Notes: a model not told the origin generated them from the sequence alone. A stretch of DNA of 64,000 bases from Pseudobdellovibrionaceae bacterium (GCA_044359815.1 JBIKLL010000006.1:11034-75033); one strand, 5' to 3'. Counted from the stretch's first letter, positions 222 through 40,289 are shown. A program made the numbers and translations.

Positions 222-1055
222 TTAACCGATCATTTTTAATGCTAATGATGGGATCTGGTTCGCTTGCACCAATACAGCCGCAGAAGCTTGTAACAATACA
301 TTGTTTCTGGCTGATTCTGCTGTGGCATTAGCGACATCAGTATCCCTGATTCGCGAATTAGCGGCAGACAGGTTTTCGTGCTGAACACCCAGATTTTCAA
401 CCGTTGATTGAAATCGGTTTTGCAAGGCCCCCAGATTGGCTCGAAAGGCTGCAACCTGAGCTTGAGCATTGTCCACCACATTTAATGATGCTTGTGCGCC
501 TTCTTTGGTAGTGAAATCTAAGTCAGATATTTCTAAATTGTCAGTCGTTGCGTTTAATCTGGAAGGATCAAAAGAAATTCGATCTTCAAAATCATCGTTG
601 TTAACGCCGACTTGAATGTCAAATTTTTCACCGCTTCCGTCCAACATCACAGTTGAACCAAATCGTGTTGTTTTTGATATACGTTGAATCTCGTTTTTAA
701 TCGCTTGAACTTCGGCATCGATGTATCCACGCTCTCTTTCACCGACAGTGTCAGATGAAGCCTGGATGCCCAGTTCACGCATACGAGTTAATATATTTGA
801 AATTTCGCCCAAACCACCCTCAGCGACTTGCACCATCGATATACCATCGTTGGCGTTTCTGGATGCTTGTGCCAATGACCTGATATTGGATTTCAAGTTT
901 TCACTGATACCCAATCCAGCGGCATCGTCTGCAGCCTTAGTGATACGGCTTCCAGAAGACAATTGAGCATAGCTCTTCTGGATCTCACGCTGTGAGTTTG
1001 TCATGGTTCTTTGCGCATTGATCGCTGGTACGTTCGTAGTAATTCTCATTCCCAT
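222..1055 (-). CDS. fliC: Flagellin (short, D0/D1 only)
   Basis: MGMRITTN start, LSSGSRITKAADDAAG, SRIRDTDVA and QANQ.P C-terminus; 277 aa; GGAGG RBS. Confidence 0.97.
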   Translation of the reverse strand: MGMRITTNVPAINAQRTMTNSQREIQKSYAQLSSGSRITKAADDAAGLGISENLKSNIRSLAQASRNANDGISMVQVAEGGLGEISNILTRMRELGIQASSDTVGERERGYIDAEVQAIKNEIQRISKTTRFGSTVMLDGSGEKFDIQVGVNNDDFEDRISFDPSRLNATTDNLEISDLDFTTKEGAQASLNVVDNAQAQVAAFRANLGALQNRFQSTVENLGVQHENLSAANSRIRDTDVANATAESARNNVLLQASAAVLVQANQIPSLALKMIG

Positions 1056-4810: not shown

Positions 4811-5638
4811 TTAGCCAATTAATTTTAATGCAACACCAGGTGTTTGGTTGGCCTGAGCCAGTACCGACACCGCAGCGCTTTGAAGAACTTGAGCAGACGC
4901 CATTTCGGCAGTTTCTTTTGCTACGTCTGTATCTCGGATACGAGAATTCGCAGCACTCAAGTTTTCATATTGAATGTCCAAGTTGCTGACTGTTGCGTTC
5001 AAACGGCTTTGGATAGATCCAAAGTTTGCTCTCATCGCACCAATTTTTTGCAGACCTTCATCGACGACTTCTAAGGCATCACGAGCCGAAGATTTGTCTT
5101 CAAAACTCAGCCCAGCAATACCAACTTCATCAGCAGTGGCATTTGAGGATAATGAATATTTAATTACGTTTTCTTCACCACCAAAAGCACCGACATGGAA
5201 TTCAAGCTCTCCGCCTGAACCATCCAACAATCGCTTGTCACCAAATCTGGTGGTTTTAGCGATACGGTCAGCTTCATCAATTAATTGCGAAGCTTCTTGG
5301 TGTAAGAATTTTCTTTCAGCGTCTCCGATATTGTCAGAAGCTGATTGAATTCCCAACTCTCTTAAACGAATCATGATATTTGTGATTTCATTTAATCCAC
5401 CTTCAGATACCTGAATCGCTGATCCAGCGTTGAAGGCGTTGTTTCTGGCTTGCGCAATACCTCTAATTTGACCGCGTAAGCTTTCAGAAATCGCTAATCC
5501 AGCGGCATCATCTGCTGCTTGAACTATTCGACTTCCCGAAGCAAGAGCCTGAGTTGAATGCTCCATTCGCTTCTGTTGTATGCCCAGAACCCTTTGCGCT
5601 GCAATCGACGGTAGGTTCGTTTGTATTCTTAAGCCCAT
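4811..5638 (-). CDS. fliC: Flagellin (short)
   Basis: Flagellin N- and C-terminal motifs; 275 aa; AGGAGG RBS. Confidence 0.97.
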   Translation of the reverse strand: MGLRIQTNLPSIAAQRVLGIQQKRMEHSTQALASGSRIVQAADDAAGLAISESLRGQIRGIAQARNNAFNAGSAIQVSEGGLNEITNIMIRLRELGIQSASDNIGDAERKFLHQEASQLIDEADRIAKTTRFGDKRLLDGSGGELEFHVGAFGGEENVIKYSLSSNATADEVGIAGLSFEDKSSARDALEVVDEGLQKIGAMRANFGSIQSRLNATVSNLDIQYENLSAANSRIRDTDVAKETAEMASAQVLQSAAVSVLAQANQTPGVALKLIG

Positions 5639-6063: not shown

Positions 6064-6888
6064 TCAAAGTAGCTTCAAAGCATACATAGGCATCTGATTG
6101 GCTTGAGCCAAAACTGCAATTTGATATTGCTGTAAAGCTTGGGCCTTAAACATATCTGCGGTTGCCTTTGCGACATCAGTGTCAGCAATTCGCGAGCGTG
6201 CAGCTTCCAAATTTTCTACCTGCAACATTCCGTTATTTTGCACTGATTCTAATCTGCTTTGCACAGCTGCAAAATTAGCTCTGGCCGCACCGATTTCTTG
6301 CAATGCCGAATCCACCATTTCAATAGAATCCACTGCAGACGATTTATCTGCGACTGACAACCCATCAATGCCCAAGCCAGAAGCCGTCGTATCAGTATTG
6401 CTCGTATAGGTAATTATATTTTCAGCACCTTTGTAAGCGCCGACTTGATACTGGTAAGTTTTCTCGGTGCCATCCAACAATTTATTCCCACCAAATCTTG
6501 TTGTCTGAGCAATACGGTCAAACTCTTCAACCAACTGAGTGTGTTCGACGTCTAGCATTTCCCTTTCCACCTCAGAATAGGTGTCACTGGCGGCTTGAAT
6601 CGCCAGCTCACGCAATCTGATCAGAATATTATTTTGTTCGTTCAGCCCGCCCTCTGCCACTTGAATCATCGAATATGCATTTTCAGCATTTTTAACGCCC
6701 GTCCTAACCCCTGTAATTTGCCCACGCAAATGTTCAGCGATTGTAAATTCAGCTGCACTTTCATTTGGATTATCAAATTTGTTCCCCGAGGCTAGTGCTT
6801 TCAATGCACCTTCGTTTTCTCGGGAAGACTTCGAAATTTGGCGCTGTGCCGCCAGTGAAGCCATATTTGTATTGATTCTAAGTCCCAT
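6064..6888 (-). CDS. fliC: Flagellin (short, more divergent paralog)
   Basis: MGLRINTN, QVAEGGLNE and SRIADTDVA motifs; 274 aa. Confidence 0.95.
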   Translation of the reverse strand: MGLRINTNMASLAAQRQISKSSRENEGALKALASGNKFDNPNESAAEFTIAEHLRGQITGVRTGVKNAENAYSMIQVAEGGLNEQNNILIRLRELAIQAASDTYSEVEREMLDVEHTQLVEEFDRIAQTTRFGGNKLLDGTEKTYQYQVGAYKGAENIITYTSNTDTTASGLGIDGLSVADKSSAVDSIEMVDSALQEIGAARANFAAVQSRLESVQNNGMLQVENLEAARSRIADTDVAKATADMFKAQALQQYQIAVLAQANQMPMYALKLL

Positions 6889-23871: not shown

Positions 23872-24981
23872 TCAGACTAAATCGATTTCGGTAATGTCTT
23901 TTCGAGTGATCAACGTTTGAGTGATTTCAGAATACAAAACCTTACCTAAATTGGATTTGGGGATTCCATTTAAAACCACCAATTTTTTGATTCTTTCCAA
24001 AGGCATACAGCTTTTATTCCACGCTTCGATTTTGGTTTTAGCCTGGGCAATCTGATCTGCTGCACCCACGACGCCAATTATTTTTGCGCCAGTTCTAGAA
24101 TCTGGTAGCGAAGTCACCGCAAAATCCAAAACATCTTCAAACTGATTTCGCAGTTTAAATAACGACACTAATTCTCCGTTTATTTTGATGGTCTCGCCGG
24201 ATCTTCCCAAAGGCTTCAAATATCCACCATCAATTAAAACCTGATCAGAAGTCTTCAGTCCTAAATGCTTGTCGACAGGTATCCAGCTTTCGTTTTCAAC
24301 ATACCCTTCGCACACAGCTGCTGACCTGACCATCAATAGTCCGTCTAAAACCTGAGCTTGAATATGATTTAAAATTTTTAATTGAGGATACTGATCCTGA
24401 CTGACAGACACTGCCGTTGCAATCTGCGAAGCAACCTCGGTCATGCCAAAGGTTGGATACAATTTCCAACCCAGCTTCACCGCTGCAAAATACAGATCTG
24501 GATTCAGCGCTGCCCCACCCACAAAAATGCATCTCAAGCTTTTCGGACTGATCATTTGCTTCTGAACCAAATCAAAAATCTGAGTGGGAACCAAAGAAGT
24601 CACGGTGATCTGATTGTCACTGCAAATTTTTGAAAATTTAATTGGATCCCAGCCAAAGGGATCAGCATCAATTACAAAACTGCTCAGTTCCTGTGCCCTA
24701 AAAAAGGTCGCCAGTCCACCGACATGAAATTTAGGCAATACATTTAAAAAAATATCTTCACTGGTCAGCCCCATTATTTGATTAACGGCATTGGCGCTGG
24801 CACACATCGCAGCTTCGGTTAAACACACTAACTTGGGGATTCCCTGACTGCCACTGCTAGCAAACCAATAGCTGCCTTGCGGCCCTGAATCTCGAAATTT
24901 AAAAAAATTTTCGGTCAGATATTTTTTCTGATCCCAATCCAGATTTGGGTTCAACAAAAGACCAGGCTGCACGGGTATCAT
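23872..24981 (-). CDS. menE: O-succinylbenzoate-CoA ligase
   Basis: SSGSQGIPK, FHVGG, FGMTEVASQ and GR...IKINGE; ATGA overlap with the menC stop. Confidence 0.85.
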   Translation of the reverse strand: MIPVQPGLLLNPNLDWDQKKYLTENFFKFRDSGPQGSYWFASSGSQGIPKLVCLTEAAMCASANAVNQIMGLTSEDIFLNVLPKFHVGGLATFFRAQELSSFVIDADPFGWDPIKFSKICSDNQITVTSLVPTQIFDLVQKQMISPKSLRCIFVGGAALNPDLYFAAVKLGWKLYPTFGMTEVASQIATAVSVSQDQYPQLKILNHIQAQVLDGLLMVRSAAVCEGYVENESWIPVDKHLGLKTSDQVLIDGGYLKPLGRSGETIKINGELVSLFKLRNQFEDVLDFAVTSLPDSRTGAKIIGVVGAADQIAQAKTKIEAWNKSCMPLERIKKLVVLNGIPKSNLGKVLYSEITQTLITRKDITEIDLV

Positions 24982-25970
24982 CGGATTAAAACCCAATCTA
25001 AATTTTCCAAAATATCATCAAAGCCCACACCTGTACCCATAGGCTGCACCAAATAAGGCCCTGAAGTTATAAACTGAGCCGAAAACGCATTTGCTTGATA
25101 GGCTCGATTTGTTAAACACCCACACTCAAGCAATCTGACTGTATGAGTTTTTTTAAACTCAGAGGCCACAGCTAATGCATGAGCAGCTCCAACGGGATGA
25201 TCCAATGAACTGGTGATCACAGCTTTCAAATCATGCTTAACAATTCGCATAGTGGCTTCTTCAATATCCATTCTGGCAGGTTTTAGTACGACAATCTTAA
25301 ATGGGGGTTTCTCGGGCAAAGTATCCCAGTCCACTTTGACAATTTCATGATCAATCGCTAAAGGCAGCAGCTTACTGGCATCAGTCCACAGTGCCAAATC
25401 CCAGGGAAAGGGATCCTCTACAAATTCAATTTTTGCTTTTTCAGGTTGCGACAGCAGCGAACTGAATCTTTGCAGAAACTGAAAATCAGCCGTTGAATTA
25501 AAATCCAGTCGAACCATTACAGGGTGTTGTCTGATCAACCTGGATACAAACTTAGCTTCTTCAAAAGGATCTACCCCTAATTTTATTTTGAAGGTCGTAA
25601 ATCCAGCACTACGCACCTCCATGATCATCGAATCCTTACATGTGCTGTAGTCAGTGATCAAAAAATGATTTTTAACTTTCGGCAATCCCTCAAACAAACT
25701 TTTTTTATCGGCTCGAGCTTTTGCATCCAGCCTGGCCAACCAAACTGCTTGTTCAACCAGCTCTGACATTTTACCTGATTCTAAATCCTCTAACTGGGCA
25801 TCCAAATTTTTGTCACCCAATTCAGGCCACGGATGCAAATCTGCGTATCCAGTCAGATTGTTTGGCCATTGGATTTTCAACAAACTGCCTGATCGGAGTT
25901 CATTTTTTGCCAAGGCTCCAAATTTTGAAACCGGTTCCAAGGTGTATTTATGAGACCAAAATTTTAACAT
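24978..25970 (-). CDS. menC: O-succinylbenzoate synthase
   Basis: Enolase-superfamily KIK, RLDFN, FVEDP and LKP motifs; men context. Confidence 0.85.
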   Translation of the reverse strand: MLKFWSHKYTLEPVSKFGALAKNELRSGSLLKIQWPNNLTGYADLHPWPELGDKNLDAQLEDLESGKMSELVEQAVWLARLDAKARADKKSLFEGLPKVKNHFLITDYSTCKDSMIMEVRSAGFTTFKIKLGVDPFEEAKFVSRLIRQHPVMVRLDFNSTADFQFLQRFSSLLSQPEKAKIEFVEDPFPWDLALWTDASKLLPLAIDHEIVKVDWDTLPEKPPFKIVVLKPARMDIEEATMRIVKHDLKAVITSSLDHPVGAAHALAVASEFKKTHTVRLLECGCLTNRAYQANAFSAQFITSGPYLVQPMGTGVGFDDILENLDWVLIR

Positions 25971-26848
25971 AGCAAAAATCCCACGCTGGCCAAAACCCCA
26001 AAACTCAAATGCAACAATGCACTTTTGGCCAATAGTCCGTTAAATGCTTTGCTGGGTTCATTGGTAAAAACAAAATGAATAATAAATCCAGCTAACGGCA
26101 ATACCATTAGGGTCATCAATGGAACCATAGAAAGCCCCCTGCCCCACCAATAAAAATTCAGCAACAAGGGTGCTATAATCAAACCTGCTATTTCGTATCT
26201 GGCTACTTGTTTGCCAAATCTTACGGGGATGGTTTTTTTGCCAACCACTTTGTCGGTTTCAACGTCCCGCAGATTATTGACTGCAATCAATACCGCACAT
26301 AACAATCCAACCTGTAATCCCAAAACAAACAGCTCTGTGGTAAACTGTTTCAGTTGCAAAAATCCATAGCCCATTACGGCGATCACTCCAAAAAATAAAA
26401 TCACAAACAAATCCCCTAGTCCCAAATACGCCAATGGAAAAGGCCCTCCGGTATAGGAATAAGCTAAAAATAAAGAAATCATTCCGATCACCAAAATCGT
26501 CCAACCGCCTTGAGCCACCAACCAAGACCCCAGGACAAAGGCCATCAGCAAAAATAATCCGGCAGCAAACCACACATACTGAATCGGAATCAATCCGGCC
26601 GCTGTGACCCTGGTGGGGCCGATTCGGTCCGGTGTGTCCGCACCCTTTTTAAAATCAATGGCATCATTAAATAAATTGGTCGCGATTTGGATAAACAAAG
26701 CACACAACAATGTGACTACAAATATTCTGACATCAAACATTTGGTACTGACTGTACAAAAACGCCGAGGCAGCCACAATTGGCACAACAGCGGCGGTCAG
26801 GGTCTTGGGCCGAAAAGCCAATATCCAATACTTAACAACATTCAGCAT
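25964..26848 (-). CDS. menA: 1,4-dihydroxy-2-naphthoate prenyltransferase
   Basis: RPKTL, NDAIDFKKGAD, YTGGPFPLAY and NNLRDVETD. Confidence 0.95.
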   Translation of the reverse strand: MLNVVKYWILAFRPKTLTAAVVPIVAASAFLYSQYQMFDVRIFVVTLLCALFIQIATNLFNDAIDFKKGADTPDRIGPTRVTAAGLIPIQYVWFAAGLFLLMAFVLGSWLVAQGGWTILVIGMISLFLAYSYTGGPFPLAYLGLGDLFVILFFGVIAVMGYGFLQLKQFTTELFVLGLQVGLLCAVLIAVNNLRDVETDKVVGKKTIPVRFGKQVARYEIAGLIIAPLLLNFYWWGRGLSMVPLMTLMVLPLAGFIIHFVFTNEPSKAFNGLLAKSALLHLSFGVLASVGFLLC

Positions 26849-26908
26849 TCGGGCACATTAGCAGAAATTCTTAGTGATGACGAAAATTTTCTGCAGTAGA
26901 TAGATTAA

Positions 26909-28117
26909 ATGATTACTTATTTGATGATTGGTTTGGTTTTAGGAATCGCCTTCGGTGCTGGCTGCATATTTATTTGGCAGCGCGCCAAATTTTTTGACTC
27001 AGAAATGCGATCTATTCAAGCTCTAGCTGAGCTAAATGCAATCAAAGAACAGATTAAAAGCGAAAAATCTATTCAGGAAAAATTAGGTGATCAGTTTCAG
27101 CAAATATCATCAAAATTTTACGAAGAAAAATCCAATACGATGACCCAATCCAGTATTCAGTCACTGCAGTTGCTGCTGAATCCTTTTAAGGAAAAAATCA
27201 AAGAGTTCGAAAAAAAGATCGATGATACCTATGGCAGCGAAAAAACTGAGCGCAACCTGCTGCGAGGTGAGATTTCAAAATTAATTGATTTGAATTTTAA
27301 AATTTCTGCTGAAGCCAACAATCTGTCCCGGGCACTAAAGGGCGACAACAAAACCAGTGGCAATTGGGGTGAATGGATTTTATCTAGCATTTTGGAAAAA
27401 TCCGGCCTGCGCGAGGGCGAAGAATATATTTTGCAAGCTGAAAACATGAGACTTAAAAATCTGGAAGGCGATTTTATCAAGCCCGATGTGATTATCAATT
27501 TACCTGATGATAAGCACATCATTATCGATTCCAAGGTTTCACTGATGCATTATGAAAGTTACGCAAACAGCTCAGAAGTCGCTGATCAGGATCGTTTTGC
27601 AAAGGCACAGCTGGAAAGCATTAAAAAACACATCGATGGTTTGGCCTCTAAAAGCTACCAGAGCTCTGAACGGTTGCTGACACCTGATTTTGTGATTTTG
27701 TTTATGCCTATCGAGCCTGCCTTTGCTCTGGCCTTTAAATACAGACCTGATTTGCTACAGTATGCGTGGGAAAAAAACATCGCGTTGGTTTCTCCTACGA
27801 CTTTGCTGACGACTTTGAAAACAGTGGCGACACTGTGGCGGCAAGAACGCCAGCAAAGAAATGCCTTGGAAATCGCAAAACGCGGTGGAGCCTTGTACGA
27901 TAAATTTGTTGGACTGGTTGAAGATTTTGAAAAGCTGGGTGAAAAAATCGATGCTGTTTCAAAACACCATTCGGGATTAAAACAAAAGCTATCTACAGGA
28001 ACCGGAAATCTAATCAGGCAAGCTGAAATGCTGCGGGAACTGGGCGCAAAAACTGAAAAAAAGCTAGCAAAGCTGGAATCCGACAACCTAAAAATCCTCG
28101 ACATACCCGAAGCTTAA
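26909..28117 (+). CDS. rmuC: DNA recombination protein RmuC
   Basis: GNWGE..L..ILE.SGL, PDVII.LP, IIDSK, DFVILFMPIE and PTTLL. Confidence 0.95.
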   Translation: MITYLMIGLVLGIAFGAGCIFIWQRAKFFDSEMRSIQALAELNAIKEQIKSEKSIQEKLGDQFQQISSKFYEEKSNTMTQSSIQSLQLLLNPFKEKIKEFEKKIDDTYGSEKTERNLLRGEISKLIDLNFKISAEANNLSRALKGDNKTSGNWGEWILSSILEKSGLREGEEYILQAENMRLKNLEGDFIKPDVIINLPDDKHIIIDSKVSLMHYESYANSSEVADQDRFAKAQLESIKKHIDGLASKSYQSSERLLTPDFVILFMPIEPAFALAFKYRPDLLQYAWEKNIALVSPTTLLTTLKTVATLWRQERQQRNALEIAKRGGALYDKFVGLVEDFEKLGEKIDAVSKHHSGLKQKLSTGTGNLIRQAEMLRELGAKTEKKLAKLESDNLKILDIPEA

Positions 28118-28198
28118 TTTTAATTAAGTTCGTTCACATCTCTACAGTATTAACAATTTTAAAACTAAAAATGTTAATACCTCTTCAGGCGACTTTAA

Positions 28199-29101
28199 CT
28201 AAAAATGCCAGGGATATTTACCGAAATCACGAGGACGTTTTTCCAAGAAAGCATCCCGACCCTCGGTGGCTTCGTCTGTCATGTAGGCCAATCTGGTGGC
28301 TTCGCCAGCAAAAATTTGCTGTCCCACTAACCCATCATCAATCAGATTCATGGCAAATTTGGACATCCTGATTGCAGTTGGGCTTTTGGTCAAAATTTCC
28401 TGACCCCATTGGATTGCAGTGGCTTCAAGCTCAGCATGGGGAACGACCTTGTTAACCATTCCCATCATAAAAGCTTCATCGGCAGTGTATGAGCTTCCCA
28501 GAAAAAATATTTCGCGAGCACGTTTTTGCCCGACCATTCTGGCTAAGTACGCAGAACCATAACCACCATCAAATGATGCGACATCAGTGTCGGTTTGTTT
28601 AAATACTGCGTGTTCTTTACTGGCGATTGTTAAATCACAAACCACGTGCAACGAATGCCCACCACCCACGGCCCAACCTGGAACAACGGCAATCACAACC
28701 TTAGGCATAAATCTGATCAGTCTTTGGACTTCTAAAATATGAAGCCTTCCCAACTTTGTAGCGGCCTCAGTACTCGTTGCCCCTGAACCTTGATTGTATT
28801 GATATCCATCTTTACCGCGGATTTTCTGATCTCCGCCTGAACAAAAGGCCCAACCACCGTCTTTGGGTGATGGTCCATTACCAGTCAGTAGGACGACTCC
28901 CACATCAGAAGTTTGTCTGGCGTGATCCAAGGCCCAATATAGCTCGTCCACAGTTTGGGGTCTGAAGGCGTTTCTGACCTCGGGCCGATTAAATGCCACG
29001 CGCACAATCCCCAAGGATTCGTGCCGATCATAAGTGATGTCTTTAAAATTTTTAATTGATTTCCACATATCAGGCAGTGCTAGCACTGCCTGATTTTGCA
29101 T
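28199..29101 (-). CDS. menB: 1,4-dihydroxy-2-naphthoyl-CoA synthase
   Basis: FNRPEVRNAF, FCSGGDQ, GGGHSLHVVCDLT and SFDGGYG; start 29101 or 29068. Confidence 0.96.
   Translation of the reverse strand: MQNQAVLALPDMWKSIKNFKDITYDRHESLGIVRVAFNRPEVRNAFRPQTVDELYWALDHARQTSDVGVVLLTGNGPSPKDGGWAFCSGGDQKIRGKDGYQYNQGSGATSTEAATKLGRLHILEVQRLIRFMPKVVIAVVPGWAVGGGHSLHVVCDLTIASKEHAVFKQTDTDVASFDGGYGSAYLARMVGQKRAREIFFLGSSYTADEAFMMGMVNKVVPHAELEATAIQWGQEILTKSPTAIRMSKFAMNLIDDGLVGQQIFAGEATRLAYMTDEATEGRDAFLEKRPRDFGKYPWHF
29069..29094. repeat. Perfect 26-bp palindrome
   Basis: ATCAGGCAGTGCTAGCACTGCCTGAT is its own reverse complement. Confidence 0.9.
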
Positions 29102-34031: not shown

Positions 34032-34559
34032 CTACAAACTGGCTTCAGGATCTCGGTCAGGAACTTTAATCGCAATTTTGTTGCTGCCCAGGCTCTTTAA
34101 AGTCTTGCCTGGATTTTGAACTACACGTTGTTGTAGCGCCGTAAAAATGGGCTCCCTGATAGCCAAATTATTATCCTGCAATACACACTGCCTAGCAGTT
34201 TTCTTGTCGATATTGATCACAATAGGAGCTTTTAAATTGGCCGTCATCTTGGTCGGATCGGCCGGTATAGTGACGATACAAAATTTTGAAACATGGGCTT
34301 CTGGTCCGATTTTTAATGCTTCCAGATCAGACTTGGCCAACTGCAATTTTGTGTTCGGAGCACAAATCTCGGGCTCCAATAGCGGAAAGGCAATCGCTGC
34401 ATCATCACAGCTTTGCAACCAAGCAAAAATATCATCGTGAGGATCGTCCAAAAGGACAAACTTTTTCAAATCAGCAAAACCCAAAAGGCCTTCGCTAAAT
34501 TGCAAAATTTCATTTTCATTTACTGAAACTTGACCAAAGCGAGTTGTCTTGATGACCAC
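34032..34559 (-). CDS. fliW: Flagellar assembly factor FliW (CsrA antagonist)
   Basis: TTRFG, F.EGLLGF, WLQS and TANLKAPIVIN; downstream of csrA. Confidence 0.95.
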   Translation of the reverse strand: MVIKTTRFGQVSVNENEILQFSEGLLGFADLKKFVLLDDPHDDIFAWLQSCDDAAIAFPLLEPEICAPNTKLQLAKSDLEALKIGPEAHVSKFCIVTIPADPTKMTANLKAPIVINIDKKTARQCVLQDNNLAIREPIFTALQQRVVQNPGKTLKSLGSNKIAIKVPDRDPEASL

Positions 34560-34725: not shown

Positions 34726-34953
34726 TTATTTCTTAAGCATTTCGCCCAATTTGCGAGTCGCATCAGTTGATGCGTGGGCTGAATCTTTATTGGTTTCCTG
34801 GATAGCTAAATACACTTCTTCACGGTGAATTTTAGTTTCACGTGGCGCTTCAATGCCCAGTCTAACCTGTTTGCCTTTAATTTGAACAACGCGAATTTTG
34901 ATGTGGTCATCAATAGCGATGCTTTCACCCAACTTCCTTGTAAGAACCAGCAT
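34726..34953 (-). CDS. csrA: Carbon storage regulator CsrA (FliW-binding type)
   Basis: MLVLTRK.GESI, VRLGIEAP and HREE; R44, N55 and a C-terminal extension. Confidence 0.97.
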   Translation of the reverse strand: MLVLTRKLGESIAIDDHIKIRVVQIKGKQVRLGIEAPRETKIHREEVYLAIQETNKDSAHASTDATRKLGEMLKK

Positions 34954-38497: not shown

Positions 38498-38878
38498 TTA
38501 CTTTTTATATTTTTCCAAGGCTTTGGTTTGTAGAGATTTGTCCAGTGGCATTGGGCCATTATTTGGCTGTTTCTGAGTGATTCCAAGAGCCTCTCCGTAT
38601 TTATCCAACAGATTTTTATAAATGGTCTCGGACAGACCCAGGCCACCCTGGTCCCCCCATTTTTCAACATACTCGTGATCTAGCTGTTCCTGAAAAATCT
38701 TCTGGCCCTGACTGACCGGGATTAGGCTGTCTTTGCCTGTGGTGGCCCGCATGGCTTTGACCATTTCGCGCATAAACTGTTTTTCATACAGTTTTCCAAT
38801 TTCTTTAAATTTATTGTCCATTTTTTCGGGATCAATTTTTTGTTGAAGCGGAATGGCTTTTTGGATTTTTACCGACAT
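38498..38878 (-). CDS. flgJ: FlgJ, rod-binding domain only
   Basis: YEKQFMREMVKAMRAT...GGLGL; no muramidase domain; ATG 38878 with AGGGA SD (alternative start 38887). Confidence 0.85.
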   Translation of the reverse strand: MSVKIQKAIPLQQKIDPEKMDNKFKEIGKLYEKQFMREMVKAMRATTGKDSLIPVSQGQKIFQEQLDHEYVEKWGDQGGLGLSETIYKNLLDKYGEALGITQKQPNNGPMPLDKSLQTKALEKYKK

Positions 38879-39278
38879 CAGAGGCATCCCTGAATCTGAT
38901 GTCGACTTGCCTTCGTCGCTGCTGCAAGCGCGCCCGTCTGGGGCGTGGCCGCGGTTTTCTTGGCATCGATACTCAGCATAGTCCGCGCATCCATGCGCTC
39001 CTGTCTTCGCTGCGCTCGACCAAAAAAGTTGGGAGGTAGAGTCAGAGTCGTATCGCTTCCGTGCGACTTGAACTCTTTTAGCTTCGGCCTTTGTGATACC
39101 AATCCTTGATATCTTGCTGACCTATTGCTCCTGTTTCCTGCTAGAAACGAAATTCGAGATTCCTGACCGTCCTTGGCTCCGATCTCTAACTCGTCCCCCC
39201 CGGGCCCATGCTCCATCCATAGAGCGTGAGCTGATATTTTTATTCTAAATACAAAATCGTCAAATCCATAATTATTTT
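38879..39278 (-). ncRNA. Putative CsrA-binding (CsrB/RsmZ-like) structured RNA region within the flg operon
   Basis: 15 GGA on the minus strand versus 1 on the plus strand; ANGGA loops closed by stems such as GCGC-ATGGAT-GCGC, TCGC-ACGGAA-GCGA, GCTCT-ATGGAT-GGAGC and GATATC-AAGGATT-GGTATC. Confidence 0.55.
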
Positions 39279-40289
39279 TCACAAAACTTCAAGCTCCCCG
39301 TGCAAAGCTCCAGCTGCCTTGATCGACTGAAGTATAGTCACCAAGTCTTTAGGACTGACTCCCAGCCGATTCAGCGCCTGTACTAGGTCTCCGACGTTCA
39401 CACCCGAGTCCAGTACCATGACTTTTTCCTCGGCCGTTTCTTTGGAATCTTTTCCGGATTTTTTGTCAGCGACTTTCACCGACAGATTTCCGTGGGCAAT
39501 AGCGACCTTGGAAATTTTAACTTTGTCACCAATGATGACAGTACCTGTTTTTTCATTGATCACCACTCGCGCTTTTGAGTCAGGATTCACATTGATGGCC
39601 TCGATGGTTGCTAACAGCTCAACACCCTTACCCTCGTAGGCAAATGGAGTGATCACATCAATGGTTCCGGCGTCTTTTGCCGAAGCATACTGACCGCTCA
39701 GTTCTTTGTTGATGGTCAATGCCGTTCTGGCTGCAGTGATAAAATCAGGATTGTGCAATGTCAGTCTGAACATTTTGCGACTGGCAAAATCAGAACTGAT
39801 GTCGCGTTCGATGATTCCACCATTGGGCACTCTGCCAACTGTTGTGTGTGCGGATTTGTCTCCGCCTCCTATAACAATCGACCCTTGTGCCACCGCAAAA
39901 ACTTGCTCATTCGCAGCTCTTAGCGGCGTTTGCAACAGGACACCGCCTTCCAGCGATGCCGAATCCCCTAATGCACTGACCGTAACATCCAGGGGATTTC
40001 CGGCTTTACTGAATGCCGGCAGATTAGCTGTAACGATGACGGCTGCAACGTTTTTGGATTCGACCTGCTGGTTGTCCAGTTTGACTCCCAGTTTGTCCAA
40101 CATTCGCCCCAAGGATTTAGATGTGAATTCGCTTTTGCCATCGCCAGTGCCCTTTAAGCCCACCACAATTCCATAACCGACCAGCTGGTTTTCACGCACT
40201 CCACGGATGCTTGAAATGTCTTTCAACCTTGCGGCTTCCGACAAAAATCCCACTAACACAAAACAAGTTATAAAAAATAAATTTCTCAC
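39279..40289 (-). CDS. flgI: Flagellar P-ring protein
   Basis: RLKDI..I.GVRENQLVGYGIVVGLKGTGD; INEKTGTVI; AAGALHGEL. Confidence 0.97.
   Translation of the reverse strand: MRNLFFITCFVLVGFLSEAARLKDISSIRGVRENQLVGYGIVVGLKGTGDGKSEFTSKSLGRMLDKLGVKLDNQQVESKNVAAVIVTANLPAFSKAGNPLDVTVSALGDSASLEGGVLLQTPLRAANEQVFAVAQGSIVIGGGDKSAHTTVGRVPNGGIIERDISSDFASRKMFRLTLHNPDFITAARTALTINKELSGQYASAKDAGTIDVITPFAYEGKGVELLATIEAINVNPDSKARVVINEKTGTVIIGDKVKISKVAIAHGNLSVKVADKKSGKDSKETAEEKVMVLDSGVNVGDLVQALNRLGVSPKDLVTILQSIKAAGALHGELEVL

Follow-up and report, generated by a model that had tools for sequence, protein, structure and literature searches.

What occupies the gap between flgI and flgJ in the flagellar cluster of this Pseudobdellovibrionaceae bacterium, and does it act on CsrA? 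The window analysed here is a stretch of 64,000 nt, in which all genes of the flagellar region lie on the minus strand in the order flgF/G-like rod genes, flgA, flgH, flgI, spacer, flgJ, flgM, flgN, flgK, flgL, csrA and fliW. A preliminary description had placed a CsrB-like CsrA sponge in the roughly 390 nt that split flgI from flgJ, inside a flagellar cluster that also encodes CsrA and FliW. Gene calls, Pfam matches and the translated CsrA confirm both the gap and its setting:

39279..40289, minus strand: flgI, P-ring protein (Pfam PF02119, E 2.4e-114)
38888..39278, minus strand: flgI-flgJ spacer, 391 nt (gene calls)
38498..38887, minus strand: flgJ, rod-binding domain only (Pfam PF10135, E 5.2e-12)
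34726..34953, minus strand: csrA, 75 aa, with N55 and a C-terminal extension (Pfam PF02599, E 7.1e-26; translation)
34032..34559, minus strand: fliW (Pfam PF02623, E 2.6e-35)

GC content is 0.51 over the whole spacer and rises to 0.57 at 38900-39099, the top value within 36-42 kb. Two features by which a CsrA-FliW partner switch is recognised are present, as csrA and fliW are neighbouring genes and the 75-aa CsrA has N at position 55; fliW lies 4.5 kb downstream of the RNA described below, in the same flagellar cluster. In the sections of the literature available to us, the N55 form of CsrA with a C-terminal extension is taken to be controlled by FliW (PMC13407953; PMC4894983).

The minus strand of 39022-39236 encodes a structured RNA that is conserved in relatives. 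A search for FlgI succeeded in 118 of 121 family genomes, and 38 loci yielded 29 different spacers of 251-624 nt once three duplicates (L001, L016 and L023), a single off-target locus and five loci truncated ahead of flgJ had been omitted; L008, among the 29, belongs to another family of the order. When aligned, these spacers share a common core of about 210 nt, in which RNAalifold finds six helices (H1, P1, H2, H3, H4 and H5) with 44 consensus pairs. Standard pairs fill 95.3% of the 1273 alignment cells, compared with 37-46% in controls with the 3' partner slid 1-3 columns along, and 25 of the 44 pairs have changed on both sides, compared with 9-15 in the slid controls. The covariation score is 0.361 (0.058-0.086 when slid), and none of 500 column shuffles reached any of these measures. 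Enlarging the alignment to 47 sequences, selected from 65 so as to be less than 93% alike, gave 37 pairs, of which 27 had changed on both sides. Covariation among the flgI-flgJ spacers of relatives, to which the preliminary description had looked, is thus evident as compensatory changes in H1, H4, H5 and P1; the stems of H2 and H3 hardly vary and therefore gain no support of this kind. In the window itself the minimum-energy fold of the RNA reaches -72.4 kcal/mol (z -3.53; 1 of 200 shuffles as low) and contains the same helices as the consensus. The RNA and its parts are as follows, with GGA counts from the 47 family sequences:

39022..39236, minus strand: small RNA, counterpart of APsRNA1, about 215 nt including the U-run (about 210 nt) (covariance model R1 and fold)
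39204..39231, minus strand: H1, 12-bp hairpin with loop AUGGAU, GGA at 39218-39216 (both-side changes in 11 of 13 consensus pairs; GGA at its column in 47 of 47)
39180..39201, minus strand: 5' arm of P1, GGGGGG ... GAGUUAGAGAUCG, a long-range closing helix (15 pairs, 95% paired, 6 changed on both sides)
39166..39177, minus strand: H2, GCC-AAGGAC-GGU (GGA in 45 of 47; stem invariant)
39133..39148, minus strand: H3, GUUUCU-AGCA-GGAAAC, in which GGA opens the 3' arm (GGA in 41 of 47; stem nearly invariant)
39095..39113, minus strand: H4, GAUAUC-AAGGAUU-GGUAUC (both-side changes in 5 of 5 consensus pairs; GGA in 42 of 47)
39052..39067, minus strand: H5, GUCGC-ACGGAA-GCGAU (both-side changes in 3 of 4 consensus pairs; GGA in 47 of 47)
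39022..39050, minus strand: 3' arm of P1, CGACUCUGACUC ... CCUCCC, followed by a U-run at 39027-39022; terminator-like (fold and covariation)
38888..39021, minus strand: non-conserved tail to flgJ, 134 nt, with the window-specific hairpin GCGC-AUGGAU-GCGC (38985-38998) and the stem over the flgJ start (fold z -1.15)

A possible outer helix of H4, GGUC/GGCC, would pair 39122-39119 with 39089-39086. All five hairpins singled out in the preliminary description are present: GCTCT-ATGGAT-GGAGC at 39225-39210, GCC-AAGGAC-GGT at 39177-39166, GATATC-AAGGATT-GGTATC at 39113-39095, TCGC-ACGGAA-GCGA at 39066-39053 and GCGC-ATGGAT-GCGC at 38998-38985. The first four appear in the minimum-energy fold, whereas the last is absent from that of the tail. 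Folding also predicts the final stem that had been proposed to bury the flgJ start, as a helix of 11 bp enclosing it. Both this stem and the GCGC-ATGGAT-GCGC hairpin lie outside the conserved RNA, in a tail that among relatives ranges from 8 to 462 nt between U-run and flgJ and is unalignable between genera.

The window RNA is a member of the APsRNA1 family, as established by the covariance model, by synteny and by the exact sequence in relatives. According to the available portions of the original report, APsRNA1 of Bdellovibrio bacteriovorus HD100 is a 207-nt RNA with a mapped start on the plus strand (499,375-499,581), between Bd0535 (P-ring protein; 498,325-499,332) and Bd0536 (FlgJ; 499,642-500,349), and its published sequence (Fig. 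S1) ends CUCCCCUUU (Karunker et al. 2013, PLoS One 8:e61850, PMC3627812). The same portions list it as one of eight attack-phase small RNAs with function unknown, give RPKM values of 50,451 in attack phase and 3,181 in growth phase, mark no FliA promoter for it and contain no occurrence of CsrA (PMC3627812). Our literature search returned no other paper naming APsRNA1. The preliminary description had allowed for either a processed small RNA or an mRNA segment, and in a relative the former alternative of a discrete RNA is borne out by this abundant 207-nt transcript, as far as the available text of that report goes (PMC3627812). The printed 207 nt recur letter for letter in the genomes of three relatives (L161/L208, L181/L206 and L180/L207), starting where the R1 match starts, so that the RNA begins 43 nt past the stop codon of flgI and has its 3' end in the U-run that follows P1; L161, a carrier of this exact sequence, is included in the training set of R1. 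By alignment, the window RNA runs from about 39236 to 39022. It shares with APsRNA1 the covariance-model family, the position between the P-ring gene and flgJ, the helices and the GGA loops. It differs in coming from another genus (its FlgI is 76-78% identical to that of g9, the genus of the carriers of the published sequence), in having GGGGGGG where most relatives have GGGGAGG, in several 1-nt indels, and in a tail of 134 nt that bears one further GGA hairpin.

A promoter of its own, located no more than about 40 nt past the flgI stop, together with a terminator-like end, is the best explanation of the sequence pattern around this RNA. The candidate -10 element is:

39242..39247, minus strand: -10-like hexamer TAGAAT, 5 nt upstream of the predicted RNA 5' end (aligns with TACAAT of a relative)

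In the relative, 5 nt likewise separate TACAAT from the published 5' end of APsRNA1 downstream of it, and TAAAAT, TAGAAT or TACAAT occurs in 38 of 60 family spacers; no clear conserved -35 element was found in family spacers. A sigma-70 pair from a promoter scan, TTGACG-N16-AAAAAT (39263..39236), was rejected, as it misfits the mapped start in the relative while TAGAAT fits as a -10. A 5' hairpin upstream of H1 precedes the mapped start and is therefore more likely promoter or operator DNA than part of the RNA. Public RNA data contain the relative's stretch in 14 runs from six studies, as contigs from which no start, end or level can be read. In three libraries (three studies), single contigs of 9.2-9.4 kb cover flgI, the RNA and flgJ of the relative without a break, although DNA carry-over could account for this; they are compatible with read-through. 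In a fourth library the contigs break inside the RNA, leaving short high-depth pieces and one adapter-tailed end.

The covariance model R1 (206 positions, 37 pairs; its E-values are rough, owing to a short calibration) matches the window at 39025-39236 over model positions 1-206 with 164.6 bits (E 7e-41), the sole match in that genome. Across the order, 116 of 151 sampled genomes carry a match, nearly always in single copy, representing 61 of 70 genera and 13 of 13 families. In a phylum sample searched with stricter filters, under which weak matches may be lost, 21 of 23 genomes of the order and none of 127 genomes of other families had one. All 22 loci fetched from other families of the order place the RNA between flgI and flgJ on their strand, with FlgI 52-64% identical to that of the window. 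In two genomes of one genus (G082 and G134) flgI and flgJ are only 1-23 nt apart, and in the order sample G082 has csrA and no R1 match. The matches listed include the named strains Bdellovibrio bacteriovorus strain kdesi and Bdellovibrio sp. HCB-162, and also metagenome-assembled genomes (MAGs) labelled Pseudobdellovibrionaceae and Bdellovibrionales. A scan with an 18-letter degenerate motif proved too loose and was set aside: among the best 80 of 121 stretches listed, most were chance matches from unrelated phyla, and use was made only of its named Bdellovibrio, Pseudobdellovibrionaceae and Bdellovibrionales records. No Rfam 15 family matched the window spacer at E up to 10, and none matched the relatives L206, L212, L224 and L011 at E up to 1.

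Does this RNA bind CsrA? The preliminary description had counted 15 GGA against 1 on the antisense strand, and this holds for 38879-39278: the 391-nt spacer contains 14 in the sense direction and 1 in the antisense direction, and a 15th sense GGA straddles the flgJ ATG (38889-38887). Fourteen exceeds the 99th percentile (13) of all minus-strand 391-nt stretches of the 64-kb window, of which the maximum is 18. The enrichment over shuffled sequence, a check that the preliminary description had suggested, is less marked. Dinucleotide-preserving shuffles of the spacer contain 10.9 +/- 2.25 GGA (246 of 2000 as high) and 3.1 ANGGA, compared with 7 observed (51 of 2000 as high), and the RNA alone has 10 GGA compared with 7.2 +/- 1.75 (192 of 2000 as high); because this excess is weak, the GGA count by itself is weak evidence. 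The GGA loops are conserved in relatives, at fixed alignment columns in 41-47 of 47 family sequences, and in the order-wide alignment of 23 sequences GGA stands at its column in 22 (H1), 23 (H2), 20 (H3), 17 (H4) and 23 (H5), so that the positions hold across the order although the stems have changed. Across 69 counted sequences, each RNA has 6-11 GGA in the sense and 0-4 in the antisense direction. In the family and order alignments H1 is mostly ACAUGGAUGU and H2 is CCA(A/U)GGA(N)GG. The CsrA/RsmE consensus is A/UCANGGANGU/A, which the H1 and H2 motifs appear to fit, and the loop motifs of the window lie 33-46 nt apart, within the range that one CsrA dimer can bridge.

csrA is found in 140 of the 151 genomes of the order, and among the matches listed it mostly shares a contig with the RNA, at a distance of 4-6 kb. 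Since csrA is nearly universal in the order, its co-occurrence with the RNA is uninformative; 28 of the 140 csrA-bearing genomes have no RNA match, and hence CsrA does not need the RNA. Of the 11 genomes lacking a csrA match, seven also lack the RNA and four have it, all four being fragmented assemblies. Because five sites would hold only two to three CsrA dimers, a decoy role would require high abundance, which is reported for the relative only. The accessible part of one study describes repression by B. bacteriovorus CsrA of a GGA-hairpin hag reporter of Bacillus subtilis (PMC13443453). Our literature searches returned no paper linking a Bdellovibrio small RNA to CsrA and no CsrA pull-down data for the clade. 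As a separate observation, the window genome has seven flagellin paralogues, and the leader of one of them (L232) has a hairpin with GGA in its loop, ahead of a Shine-Dalgarno sequence rich in GGA, which is suggestive only.

The spacer is also crossed by an open reading frame that links the two flanking genes:

38878..39282, minus strand: open reading frame of 134 codons with a GTG start, across the entire spacer (ORF call; no Pfam family)

Its GTG at 39282 overlaps the flgI stop (GTGA), being made by the last codon and stop of flgI (TTG TGA), and it ends 10 nt inside flgJ, where its UGA overlaps the second flgJ AUG (UGAUG). We surveyed 63 different spacers, comprising the family loci, L008 from another family and five named records of unchecked family. 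flgI ends TTA-TGA in 45 of the 63, and the overlapping start is ATG in 48, GTG in 7 and missing in 8. Where a start is present, the frame runs for 240 nt or more without a stop in 48 of 55 spacers, compared with 0 of the 8 without a start; at the 22 loci from other families it is open in 7 of 12 with a start and in 1 of 10 without. Frames that reach flgJ stop between 59 nt before and 23 nt inside the flgJ start, with overlap in 25 of 41. Segments between anchors vary mostly by multiples of three, a pattern that is noisier in the wider count: the flgI stop lies 28, 58, 61, 64, 73, 79 or 82 nt from the H1 loop, and H2 lies 28, 31, 34 or 37 nt from H3. Lineage-specific stop sites number 12 in the ORF frame, compared with 28 and 23 in the other frames, with mutational opportunity equal or higher. 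These counts are phylogenetically non-independent, and the ORF is absent in about a quarter of the lineages that keep the RNA.

The encoded residues behave differently from the frame. In 32 sequences picked for an intact frame, pN/pS is 0.76 in the ORF frame and 1.02 and 0.76 in the off frames, compared with 0.15 in the last 32 flgI codons of the same 32 genomes. Purifying selection on a protein-coding gene, which the preliminary description had set against a sponge, was therefore not found. Compensatory stem changes freely alter the encoded residues, and, owing to four or five 1-nt indels, the window's frame across the best-conserved part of the RNA is not the one that its relatives use, and yet it remains open. 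Pfam returned no family for the ORF product (E up to 0.01). When 41 relatives were searched in six frames with this product, only weak matches appeared (best E 2.2e-5), many with internal stops; as they are weak, several contain stops and they fall in the flgI-flgJ gap, the likeness is at the nucleotide level. Long open tails in some g9 genomes keep no single frame between species and were thus not counted as coding evidence. Selection seems to act on translation through the spacer and not on a protein. As far as our literature searches show, the order-wide limits of the RNA family, its fixed GGA positions and the retained pass-through ORF are new.

Taken together, the sequence comparisons lead us to favour, with somewhat better than even confidence, a reading in which the RNA of about 210 nt most likely binds several CsrA dimers and titrates CsrA alongside FliW, while translation of the ORF, not its product, is what is kept. 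The RNA would be made from its own promoter and end at the P1 closing helix and U-run. Its five GGA motifs, displayed on hairpins, would bind two to three CsrA dimers; CsrA would be titrated off its mRNA targets, and free CsrA would be lowered in the motile phase, alongside FliW. More speculatively, translation of the ORF may carry ribosomes, and hence transcription, from flgI past the terminator of the RNA into flgJ. A fuller version of this proposal, in which the locus serves two uses depending on where transcription begins, we regard as tentative and rather doubtful. Transcripts from the internal promoter would lack the ORF start; they would fold, end at P1 with its U-run and build up as a CsrA decoy. 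Those coming from flgI would carry the AUGA or GUGA start, and their ribosomes would read through the hairpins, stripping or excluding CsrA and blocking the terminator helix, before handing over to flgJ at the overlapping stop and start; in the window the flgJ start would otherwise be enclosed in a stem. Translation would thereby tie basal-body expression to the late genes (flgJ to fliW, including csrA), and the untranslated form would tune CsrA. Read-through that blocks P1 and hands over to flgJ would explain why the frame is kept and the peptide is not.

The same terminator could instead serve mainly in cis. CsrA or ribosomes on the hairpins would then decide termination at P1 and the U-run ahead of flgJ-flgM-flgN-flgK-flgL-csrA-fliW, with input from flgI or the RNA's own promoter, and the free 207-nt RNA would be a terminated by-product. 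The placement of P1 and the U-run directly upstream of flgJ at 22 of 22 other-family loci suits a leader or attenuator of this sort, as do the bridging ORF with its stop overlapping the flgJ start in 25 of 41 cases, the predicted 11-bp stem around the window's flgJ start, and the contigs of three RNA libraries that are continuous from flgI to flgJ (again with DNA carry-over possible). Yet a discrete RNA with a mapped 5' end and a very high level, as documented in the available portions of the APsRNA1 report, goes beyond what a by-product needs (PMC3627812), and the stretch from U-run to flgJ (8-462 nt) is not conserved. We consider attenuation as the main role unlikely; it is compatible with a decoy role.

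A structured small RNA with another partner, either a base-pairing target or a different protein, with the GGA loops serving that partner or the tertiary fold, seems to us quite unlikely. In its favour, the part of the RNA that varies least, GUUUCUCGCAGGAAACAG...GCAAUAGGUCAGC, mostly has weak pairing or none and could serve as a seed; the weak GGA enrichment over shuffles and the absence of the RNA from 28 csrA-bearing genomes point the same way. Against this, GGA lies in or at the loop of all five conserved hairpins, H1 is mostly of the form that fits the CsrA/RsmE consensus, and the RNA is always within the cluster encoding CsrA. That the main product might be a small protein (134 aa here), with the RNA hairpins secondary, is suggested by an ORF that spans flgI stop to flgJ start, by the linkage of start codon and open frame (48 of 55 against 0 of 8; 7 of 12 against 1 of 10 in other families), and by the scarcity of lineage-specific stops in its frame (12 against 28 and 23) and the many indels in multiples of three. 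We judge it very improbable, given a pN/pS that equals that of one off frame and is near the other, far from the 0.15 of flgI, a window frame that departs from that of relatives in the most conserved stretch while staying open, stem compensation that alters residues freely, the lack of a Pfam family, and a mapped RNA start that lies downstream of the ORF start codon.

CsrA decoy RNAs have been described mainly in Gammaproteobacteria, and the preferred reading, titration of CsrA by the window RNA, invites comparison with them. Like CsrB/CsrC and RsmX/RsmY/RsmZ, the RNA has several GGA loops, a size near that of RsmY and RsmZ, a 3' terminator and, in the relative, high abundance. Of the CsrB-like sponge originally envisaged, the GGA loops in a conserved structured RNA have stood, whereas likeness by descent has not: given no Rfam match to a Csr or Rsm family, the window RNA is not a CsrB/Rsm homologue. 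The GacA/UvrY box is TGTAAG-N6-CTTACA, and none of its 28 matches (at most 3 mismatches; 25.2 expected) fell within 39237-39500. Unlike CsrB and the Rsm RNAs, the window RNA is closed into one domain by a long-range helix, lies inside the flagellar operon with a FliW-type CsrA, and is overlapped by an ORF.

A parallel outside that group is Campylobacter jejuni, where, in the portion of the study available, flaA mRNA is both a CsrA target and a titrator of CsrA (Dugar et al. 2016, PMC4894983). In both systems a flagellar circuit that contains FliW, outside the Gammaproteobacteria, would use an RNA to antagonise CsrA, with CsrA binding predicted in the present case. As far as that portion shows, the titrator in C. 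jejuni is the leader of a flagellin mRNA, whereas here it would be a dedicated, terminated small RNA found order-wide. If the titration reading is true, control of CsrA by an RNA decoy and by FliW can coexist; if the dual-use reading is true as well, the locus would have, inside an operon, a small-RNA terminator that ribosomes override, and its RNA would be the first to antagonise a CsrA of the FliW type.

Dual-function small RNAs that contain an ORF, such as SgrS/SgrT, RNAIII/hld and SR1/SR1P, have a conserved peptide and their ORF inside the RNA. The window locus resembles them in combining a structured regulatory RNA with a reading frame, here an open frame only. It differs in that the start codon lies upstream of the RNA 5' end, the frame joins the flanking genes and the residues are unconserved. 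The open frame without amino-acid constraint is a peculiarity in its own right, and may show translation being used to pass a small-RNA terminator.

Many relatives carry an inverted repeat, TGTTTC-N5-GAAACA, immediately 5' of the -10 hexamer of the small RNA, the candidate CsrA decoy of the flgI-flgJ spacer, and its arms covary between genera (e.g. ATCTGTTTC...GAAACGGAT vs TTGTGTTTC...GAGACACAA).

L161, about 110-130; also L160, L167-L169 and L035 (loci from relatives); spacer positions about 8-25: inverted repeat

Since the repeat is located upstream of the mapped RNA start, the published 5' end of APsRNA1 in Bdellovibrio bacteriovorus HD100, it may, judging from sequence, be an operator of the small-RNA promoter, one recognized by a dimeric regulator. 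At this site the window's clade instead carries TTTGAC(A/G). Two genomes of genus g3 appear to be natural deletions of the small RNA and potential comparison strains: flgI and flgJ lie only 1-23 nt apart, too close to accommodate it, and G082 retains csrA despite its RNA-less junction.

G082, contig C7, around 109430: close flgI-flgJ pair
G134, contig C97, around 8870: close flgI-flgJ pair

Within the 5' arm of P1, the RNA's long-range closing helix, the window has seven consecutive G (39195-39201, minus strand) where most relatives have GGGGAGG, and several 1-nt indels occur close by. The run and these indels could be real or could reflect slips in the assembly, which comprises 125 contigs; the 134-codon frame that crosses the whole spacer is open in both cases. 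The stop of this frame overlaps the second in-frame flgJ ATG as UGAUG (window 38876-38905, minus strand), and AGGGA stands 8 nt 5' of that ATG (38878, minus strand), which, rather than the one at 38887, may be the true flgJ start. Some genomes of genus g9 have RNA-to-flgJ tails of 330-460 nt (L094, L183, L184, L188, L160, L192), with a common stretch translating as ...SFLALRNL... Because its frame relative to the flgI-anchored frame differs from genome to genome, the sequence comparison points to a conserved nucleotide element, perhaps a promoter or second RNA, rather than to protein.

Elsewhere, the window holds an ordinary gene set of menaquinone type, with an RmuC gene interposed.

23872-29101: AMP-binding enzyme, o-succinylbenzoate synthase, UbiA prenyltransferase, enoyl-CoA hydratase family

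Flagellin is encoded by seven paralogues in the genome, three of them within the window.

633-1043, minus strand: flagellin paralogue
5216-5626, minus strand: flagellin paralogue
6463-6876, minus strand: flagellin paralogue
L232-L236: flagellin loci

The L232 leader contains a hairpin with CGGA in its loop, about 27 nt upstream of a AAGGAGGAGGA ribosome-binding site. The hag leader of B. subtilis carries a two-site CsrA operator, and the L232 leader, with its loop CGGA and AAGGAGGAGGA site, resembles it.
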